This document shows, piece by piece, positions 42,461 through 42,676 of a DNA stretch of 64,000 nucleotides. A program made the position numbers and the translations under genes. Below the pieces are notes generated by a model. The model did no database searches, had not been told where the DNA came from, and saw only the letters and a list, made by a program, of their open reading frames with translations. Origin of the DNA: Escherichia coli (GTDB lineage Bacteria > Pseudomonadota > Gammaproteobacteria > Enterobacterales > Enterobacteriaceae). The stretch's first letter is position 1, and each line of letters starts with the position of its first letter. The stretch is from NCBI RefSeq assembly GCF_009931435.1, contig NZ_CP043414.1, one strand, 5' to 3'.

Positions 42461-42462
42461 AT

Positions 42463-42645
42463 GCCGGATGCGACGCCTGTCGCGTCTTATCCGACCTGGG
42501 GGATTGCACATGTAGGGCGGATAAGGCGTTCACGCCGCATCCGCCAATGGCGCGGTGCAAGTGCCGGATGCGACGCTTGCCGCGTCTTATCCGACCTGGG
42601 GGATTACACATGTAGGGCGGATAAGGCGTTCACGCCGCATCCGGC
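42463..42645. repeat. BIME/REP cluster: two ~81-bp direct repeat units, each an inverted REP pair
   Basis: gccggatgcgacgc(c/t)tg(t/c)cgcgtcttatccgacctgggggatt(g/a)cacatgtagggcggataaggcgttcacgccgcatccg appears twice about 100 bp apart, between eutG and eutH. Confidence 0.85.
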
Positions 42646-42676
42646 AATTAATTACAACTAACAGGGAGTAAAGGCG

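Follow-up and report, generated by a model that had tools for sequence, protein, structure and literature searches.

The DNA analyzed here, referred to below as the window, is a stretch of 64,000 nt from Escherichia coli (contig NZ_CP043414.1), and our study concerns an array of repetitive extragenic palindromes (REPs) that lies within its ethanolamine (eut) operon, between the genes eutG and eutH. The operon is on the plus strand and runs from eutS at about position 34979 to the end of eutR at 49864, with gene names carried over from RefSeq-annotated E. coli loci whose identity reaches ~98% over 24 kb. It is intact, since eutA directly adjoins eutB (45303-45315); in strain MG1655 the 6.8-kb cryptic prophage CPZ-55 is found between these two genes, and strain W3110 is free of CPZ-55. 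The gene on the 5′ side of the array, eutG (41273-42460, plus strand), was placed from the list of open reading frames (ORFs) and RefSeq-annotated homologous loci, and ends in the stop codon TAA at 42458-42460. The gene on the 3′ side, eutH (42677-43903, plus strand), was placed from the ORF list, RefSeq homologues and tblastn to 50 loci. The spacer between them (42461-42676) is 216 nt long and the largest gap of the operon, and about 184 of its 216 bases are taken up by the array. The array begins 2 nt past the eutG stop codon and ends 31 nt 5′ of the eutH ATG, that is, it is extragenic and sits 3′ of a gene. It is followed by the unique 31-nt leader of eutH (42646-42676, plus strand), which was delimited by sequence and allele comparison, contains the Shine-Dalgarno sequence GGGAG (42664-42668), lies outside the REPs, and is kept in all E. 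coli alleles, even in those with a different repeat.

A repeat search of the spacer revealed a single direct-repeat family, with copy 1, the reference copy, at 42459-42548 and copy 2 at 42559-42648, both on the plus strand; the two copies aligned over 90 nt with 94% identity and a start-to-start distance of 100. Within each unit, a z2-type REP on the plus strand is followed by a 12-nt linker and an inverted y-type REP, and a 17-nt linker separates the two units. In unit 1, the z2 REP occupies 42463-42499 (plus strand; predicted hairpin 42465-42493, −16.5 kcal/mol) and was recognized from sequence, fold and a blastn-short match (E = 2e-8) to a z2 consensus that came from this locus, for which reason the REPs were typed as z2 or y from the independent Rfam alignment, which matched this REP in part (42437-42496, plus strand). 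The linker GGGATTGCACAT (42500-42511), which is kept in all E. coli alleles, joins the feet of the two unit-1 REPs, and the y REP that follows in inverted orientation (42512-42545, minus strand; blastn-short E = 2e-11) folds into a predicted hairpin at 42516-42545 (−20.9 kcal/mol, z = −4.4). The inter-unit linker AATGGCGCGGTGCAAGT extends from 42546 to 42562. In unit 2, the z2 REP (42563-42599, plus strand; blastn-short E = 4e-13, Rfam and fold; hairpin −16.8 kcal/mol), the linker GGGATTACACAT (42600-42611) and the y REP (42612-42645, minus strand; blastn-short E = 1e-12, partial Rfam match of 33.1 bits, predicted hairpin −16.5 kcal/mol) repeat the same order. The foot of both y REPs is GTAG (42512-42515 and 42612-42615). 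The foot of both z2 REPs is CTGG in this allele, and the usual CTAC is intact in K-12 and most other alleles. A previous interpretation of the window made without database searches (the sequence-only reading) had described a duplicated REP pair of about 81 bp that nearly fills the spacer. The duplication, the inverted pair of palindromes in each unit (supported by sequence, blastn-short and Rfam) and the near-full occupancy all stand; the size has to be corrected, since the REP pair measures ~84 bp and the period is exactly 100 bp.

The family of the array was assigned with the Rfam covariance model RF02564 (naRNA4), which represents one y + z2 pair of the element REP325. The sole complete y-to-z2 pair of the spacer, at 42515-42596 on the plus strand, matched this model with 73.4 bits against a gathering score of 59.5 (E = 4e-11 over the whole window), and the minus strand scored 48.2 bits. 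Both hairpins aligned, the y hairpin of unit 1 being the first hairpin of the match, and the inter-unit linker differed from the model linker by a 4-nt insertion. The flanking half-units of the array were partial RF02564 matches. Given this score and E value, chance can be excluded as the origin of the array. The register of the Rfam unit is y-then-z2, whereas that of the sequence-only reading was z2-then-y.

Two types of bacterial interspersed mosaic element (BIME) have to be distinguished here: BIME-2 elements combine z2 and y REPs with short linkers in tandem copies whose number varies among strains, and BIME-1 elements combine z1 and y REPs in a single copy, with a long L linker that carries a site for integration host factor (IHF) (PMC3333891). 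The eut array has alternating inverted z2 and y REPs, each within the 20-40 nt typical of these imperfect palindromes, hairpins with internal loops, tandem copies in variable number and an extragenic position. By its sequence it thus fits the BIME-2 type, which narrows the BIME identity proposed in the sequence-only reading; its inter-unit linker was compared with that of the naRNA4 model, and the designation 'atypical BIME', with respect to the canonical S/s/l/r linker motifs, is possible. BIME-1 was considered and rejected, as the partner REP is z2, the copies are in tandem, the linkers are 12 and 17 nt long, and there is no IHF consensus. The IHF motif WATCARNNNNTTR was absent from both strands of 42441-42700 in a consensus search, and IHF sites belong to the L linker of BIME-1; the IHF binding that had been suggested for the spacer is therefore not upheld. 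The RF02564 hit is best read as a BIME-2 unit, not as a dedicated small RNA gene.

The element itself is not new, a point that the sequence-only reading missed. It is catalogued in K-12 as 'REP178, Tandem, 2568322-2568140, eutG, eutH' in the supplement of bioRxiv 10.64898/2026.03.23.713779, and these coordinates in MG1655 (2568140-2568322) correspond exactly to the eutG-eutH spacer. A 216-bp two-unit spacer is present in K-12 MG1655 and in W3110 as well. Among the papers accessible to a literature search on the eutG-eutH junction, none dealt with the role of the element in the eut operon.

Folding predictions agreed with the very stable stem-loops that had been expected on the mRNA. Besides the four REP hairpins (−16.5 to −20.9 kcal/mol), an alternative fold forms one 40-bp hairpin per unit, with −42.1 and −48.5 kcal/mol, and the fold of the whole region reaches −110.5 kcal/mol (z = −4.4). 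Pairing of the first hairpin starts at 42465, 4 nt past the eutG stop, or at 42462 in the long-hairpin fold. The minimum free energy (MFE) fold also pairs the loop of the unit-1 z2 REP (CCUGU) with the Shine-Dalgarno region of eutH (ACAGG); this pairing was treated as chance because it depends on allele-specific substitutions and competes with the REP hairpin. An intrinsic terminator in the form of a hairpin plus U-tract was not found in 42461-42676, and within 41800-43200 only a weak palindrome inside eutH came up; the same 41800-43200 interval contained no sigma-70-like promoter.

To describe variation within E. coli, 250-nt flanks from each side of the spacer were used as the query, and 60 rows were sampled evenly over the 5,411 matching records, of which 59 were usable. 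The classes were assigned by spacer length, and the sequence was read for one representative per class. One unit (116 nt) was present in 25 of the 59 complete genomes (~42%) and two units (216 nt) in 22 (~37%); three units (316 nt) occurred in three genomes (~5%) and five units (515/516 nt) in four (~7%). The remaining alleles were a decayed remnant of 99 nt, of the O157:H7 type, in three genomes (~5%), and a different repeat of 169 nt, of the SMS-3-5 type, in two (~3%). The comparison of copy number across strains that the sequence-only reading had called for thus gave one to five whole units, and representatives of other Escherichia species ranged from one unit to about six y REPs. In the class representatives, the multi-unit alleles repeated exactly in steps of 100 bp. 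The 99-nt allele contains a unit that has decayed, with a 17-nt deletion in its z2 REP (read in O55:H7, with O157:H7 genomes of equal length), and the predicted MFE of the O55:H7 remnant is −23.7 vs. −103 kcal/mol. In the 169-nt allele, another dispersed repeat of 138 nt, with a median of 15 places per genome, sits precisely where the BIME was. These results show that the array grows and shrinks in 100-bp steps among strains, and that it has decayed or been replaced in some lineages. Units were compared within and between arrays by edit distance, as 1-nt indels distort identity; the mean distance was 2.9 within an array vs. 4.4 between arrays, and strain-specific substitutions were common to one array. 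Such likeness of units is the pattern that would be expected from local duplication or gene conversion, and BIME-2 arrays are documented to behave in this way (PMC3333891).

Several individual alleles deserve separate mention. The repeat that replaces the BIME in SMS-3-5 (CCCCTCGCCCCTTTGGGGAGAGGGTTAGGGTGAGGGG...; positions 512-649 of our locus L005, homologous to 42461-42645 of the window) belongs to a structured, unannotated dispersed family; its published name is unconfirmed, and it may be Box C-like. In strain MRSN346647 (locus L009, 2630-3000), eutG is a pseudogene, and the last 321 nt of eutG have been deleted together with two BIME units. At the deletion junction, a sequence from inside eutG, GCGCATCAGCCAGGGGCG, and a y REP tail, CGCATCCGCCAGTGGCG, share an imperfect homology of 18 nt, and the repeat therefore mediated a gene-inactivating deletion in this strain. 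The metagenome-assembled genome 'Citrobacter sp. HRGM_Genome_0066' (locus L010) encodes an EutH that is 100% identical and carries an E. coli-type one-unit BIME, whereas genuine Citrobacter spacers differ; this bin is probably mislabelled or contaminated with Escherichia. As for the window itself, the best complete E. coli genome is just 98.1% identical over the 24 kb of 28000-52000, and the EutH of the window is 100% identical to that of 'Escherichia sp. E1V33'; the window probably derives from an Escherichia lineage with poor representation among complete E. coli genomes.

The survey was extended to other genera through EutH-anchored loci from 50 species. In several Citrobacter, including C. 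braakii and C. amalonaticus, the spacer is 27 nt long and has no palindrome. Yokenella, Morganella, Buttiauxella and Pluralibacter have 32-48 nt there, with a small hairpin alone, and Hafnia has 34 nt, in which no hairpin is complete. The spacers of Salmonella enterica subsp. diarizonae (67 nt) and of C. sedlakii (60 nt) each hold a single REP. The C. freundii and C. koseri groups have a y + z pair in another arrangement (119-123 nt), and Klebsiella-type REPs occur in spacers of 170-216 nt. These varied contents indicate that the site has been filled repeatedly or continuously by the host's own REP family, or is empty. The array is not required for eut function. In REP-less loci (L036-L039, L043-L047, L049, L055 and L056), a GCCTG-loop-CAGGC hairpin lies ~15-30 nt 5′ of eutH; it stands just 5′ of the eutH Shine-Dalgarno sequence in Buttiauxella, Morganella, Pluralibacter gergoviae and one Klebsiella sp. 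Its stem is nearly invariant (GCTTG in one Buttiauxella), so that covariation gives no argument for or against a structural role. REP-less Morganella, Buttiauxella and Pluralibacter carry this small hairpin; a speculative possibility is that a hairpin at the eutG-eutH junction is in general under selection.

The effect of the array on gene expression was approached indirectly, through published quantitative proteomics of W3110 grown on ethanolamine, in which abundances are given relative to EutQ = 100. The proteins encoded downstream of the array reached 37 (EutB), 24 (EutC) and 39 (EutL), and those encoded upstream reached 27 (EutE), 10 (EutD) and 7 (EutG). The operon of W3110 is intact and its spacer is the equal two-unit, 216-bp one. 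Because EutB, EutC and EutL equal or exceed the upstream enzymes in abundance across a two-unit spacer, the array is not a strong terminator. The EutG level is one of the lowest for a Eut enzyme in W3110 (7 vs. 27 for EutE), which is compatible with an effect of the REPs on translation and is not diagnostic of it. The DESeq tables of the REP325 preprint, which refer to non-inducing conditions, list eutG and eutH in different tables and were not used as evidence.

Beyond the anatomy, the family assignment and the 100-bp-step polymorphism, which were read from the genomes themselves, the roles proposed for the array are drawn by analogy from other REP loci; stabilization of upstream mRNA, attenuation and gyrase binding are generic REP/BIME roles. 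REP325 stabilizes the upstream yjdM mRNA and partly terminates transcription before yjdN, and its fragments of 2-4 hairpins had no detectable Rho dependence. Tandem gene pairs that contain REPs have, genome-wide, a higher upstream/downstream expression ratio with wide scatter, and the trimmed 3′ ends of some Rho-dependent transcripts are set by REP hairpins. Translation of a gene can reportedly be down-regulated by REPs at less than 16 nt from its stop codon (Liang, Rudd and Deutscher 2015, via PMC12306157); such regulation would involve stalling of ribosomes at the stop codon, cleavage of the mRNA or the action of tmRNA, and less protein from the upstream gene. On the DNA, a subset of BIME-2 elements is enriched in gyrase cleavage sites mapped by Topo-Seq, which fall mainly in y REPs and do not depend on transcription. 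The REP-associated tyrosine transposase (TnpA-REP/RAYT) can cleave BIMEs and recombine them in vitro (PMC3333891). The eut array lies within the 16-nt distance noted for translation-regulating REPs, and has the structure of an intra-operon REP stabilizer or attenuator, with stable predicted hairpins in the transcribed gap between co-directional genes.

With a probability of roughly 0.85, we read the eutG-eutH array as the REP178 allele of this strain, a BIME-2-type element that acts as a modulator at most and not as a strong terminator. By analogy with the loci above, it is most likely a RAYT-type repeat that is tolerated in the gap, and its action would not go beyond that of a mild exonuclease barrier or weak attenuator, with a possible dampening of EutG translation. 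TnpA-REP and recombination among the units would have made and resized the array. Within the polycistronic eut transcript, its four hairpins might block 3′-to-5′ exonucleases and so protect the eutS-eutG part after a downstream cleavage, and they might also act as a weak, leaky pause or termination site. The first hairpin, only 4 nt past the eutG stop, may slow termination of translation and thereby lower the yield of EutG, and on the DNA, gyrase sites in the y REPs are plausible. Overall, the effect of the array on the expression of the ethanolamine genes is probably modest. Several observations weigh against even this restrained reading. W3110 has no downstream drop in protein abundance, so attenuation is small at most and the data are equally compatible with zero effect; the Rho-binding peaks listed close to REP178 from in vitro work lie antisense to the eut mRNA; and the RNA-level effects are taken from other REP loci, where they are reported to depend on context and sometimes to be absent. 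In addition, the CTAC foot used by TnpA-REP has been lost from both z2 REPs, so this copy may be a poor substrate for the transposase.

How far the array could exceed or fall short of such a modulator was considered by weighing the other explanations. The sequence-only reading had named attenuation of read-through at the array as one possibility; in its strongest form, an attenuator or processing site that splits the operon, with eutS-G expressed at a high level and eutH-R at a low one, we consider this very unlikely. The predicted structure is very stable, REP325 and other BIMEs can attenuate transcription, and the gap is the largest of the operon; against these stand the missing U-tract, the lack of detectable Rho dependence in REP325 fragments of 2-4 hairpins, the antisense position of the Rho-binding peaks, and the W3110 proteomics, in which EutB, EutC and EutL match the upstream enzymes. 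Moreover, ethanolamine ammonia-lyase is the first enzyme of the pathway, and its subunits are encoded by eutBC downstream of the array, so that strong termination before them would be counter-productive. A naRNA4-like nucleoid-associated RNA, released from the eut mRNA by processing and acting together with HU on the structure of the chromosome, would account for the segment 42515-42596 exceeding the RF02564 threshold on the mRNA-sense strand, but RF02564 in effect models any BIME-2 unit, a second copy in the window scores 89 bits, and the function is disputed even for the founding member, which makes such an RNA highly improbable here. Still less credence is given to the idea that the 66-codon ORF at 42461-42661 is a genuine small gene or serves for coupling. 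Its ATG directly follows the eutG stop (TAAATG), in two-unit alleles it ends 3 nt before the eutH Shine-Dalgarno sequence, and it is also open in K-12, a geometry that could in principle couple translation across the hairpins. Nevertheless, it is translated REP sequence without a Shine-Dalgarno sequence of its own, its frame and length shift with each unit gained or lost (100 mod 3 = 1), its ATG is absent in Salmonella and Citrobacter, and it is unannotated in every RefSeq record inspected; given that unit number alters the frame and that other genera lack the ATG, the geometry was judged to be chance. The short ORFs at 42300-42515, 42364-42615 and 42461-42661 had all been regarded as artefacts of the repeat, and we concur, because they exist mechanically, their frame changes with unit number and none is annotated; no coding sequence is annotated within the spacer in any RefSeq record inspected.

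A role at the DNA level, in which gyrase would bind and cleave at the y REPs midway along an inducible operon of 15 kb and so relieve or insulate transcription-driven supercoiling, is compatible with RNA effects and seems unlikely, if less so than the preceding proposals. Gyrase cleavage is over-represented in the BIME-2 subset and prefers y REPs, and REPs have been described as topological insulators (PMC3333891). On the other hand, cleavage of BIME-2 elements is limited to that subset, eutG and eutH are not mentioned in the accessible parts of the Topo-Seq supplements, and lineages with one unit, a decayed unit or an empty spacer have no reported eut defect. The main rival to a modulating array is a neutral passenger, that is, a selfish or near-neutral repeat in one of the operon's few non-coding gaps, which has no measurable effect on eut expression and merely marks a place that tolerates insertions; we hold this to be a tentative possibility, the most serious of those weighed here. 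A copy number from 1 to ~6, decay in O157/O55, replacement by an unrelated repeat in SMS-3-5-type strains, absence from several Citrobacter with their 27-nt spacer, and the abundance of downstream Eut proteins in two-unit W3110 all speak for it. It is opposed by the average bias of REP-containing tandem pairs toward upstream expression, by the presence of some structured element at the junction in nearly every lineage examined, and by the first hairpin, which falls inside the 15-nt post-stop window for which a translational effect is reported at other genes (via PMC12306157). A more ambitious proposal is that copy number (1 to ~6 units) is a heritable dial on read-through from eutS-G to eutH-R, which we regard as doubtful, though not to the degree of a strong attenuator. 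EutR of Salmonella is a positive regulator that is transcribed partly from the main eut promoter, and eutR is the last gene of the operon; if the dial were real, unit number would alter the gain of the positive feedback and, through it, the threshold or the speed of ethanolamine induction in the gut.

The element is of little importance in itself; REP/BIME arrays have been described for decades, and the K-12 copy is catalogued. Its comparative picture, with 1 to 6 units, decay, replacement and different REPs in other genera, is that of a typical BIME. For annotation, the short ORFs in the spacer should be disregarded and the RF02564 hit should be labelled as a BIME-2 unit. With the natural allelic series, one could ask how many REP hairpins are needed to change expression within a long, pathogenesis-relevant operon.

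Three other REP sites were observed in the window, namely a single y REP between bamC and purC (13031-13062), a y/z pair between ypfH and ypfN (17688-17767; Rfam naRNA4, 89 bits) and a cluster between ypfG and tktB (29026-29137); all have conventional 3′-end positions, and none is inside the eut operon. Within the operon, the second-largest gap is the eutM-eutN spacer (38628-38733), which contains a 10-bp G+C-rich hairpin (38635-38660) followed by TCTCTCCTTT and is terminator-like. The fold z-score of this hairpin is only −1.7, and W3110 contains EutM at ~96 and EutN at ~1 on the scale of EutQ = 100; the hairpin may be an attenuator or stabilizer that sets stoichiometry. Beyond the operon, two minus-strand ORFs (49941-50258 and 50596-51561) lie between eutR and hemF and are absent in K-12, where eutR adjoins hemF. 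Their counterparts in MFDS1019527 are a hypothetical protein and a DUF1963 protein, and the window ORF 50596-51561 looks shorter than its counterpart there (321 aa vs. ~420 aa).

Comparison with known systems places the array closest to REP178 of K-12, with which it shares the locus, the 216-bp spacer, the two-unit z2/y architecture, the linkers and the eutH leader. The two differ by ~7 substitutions per 84-nt unit, and the z2 REPs end in CCGACCTGG here and in CCAGCCTAC in K-12, the CTAC foot being lost in the former. REP325, between yjdM and yjdN, is likewise a BIME-2-type tandem array of y/z2 hairpins between co-directional genes of one operon; it has 12 hairpins, whereas the eut array has 4, with 4 extra nt in the inter-REP linker. 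REP325 is the best-studied case in which upstream stabilization and partial termination are combined, and the eut copy was compared with it by sequence. At malE-malF, a stabilizer reportedly described by Newbury, Higgins and colleagues in 1987, intergenic REP hairpins are said to block 3′ exonucleases and favor the upstream gene. The eut array resembles it in having REP hairpins in a gap inside an operon, but the mal operon has a documented difference between upstream and downstream expression, whereas the eut proteomics of W3110 have no downstream drop. The IHF-binding RIP elements of the BIME-1 type share a y REP with an inverted z-type REP, but they have z1, a single copy and a long L linker with an IHF site, in contrast to the z2 REPs, tandem copies and short linkers of the eut array. 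With REPIN/RAYT (TnpA-REP) systems, finally, the array has in common inverted REP doublets, the conserved GTAG foot, and tandem amplification and variation, and it differs from them in the mutated feet of its z2 REPs.

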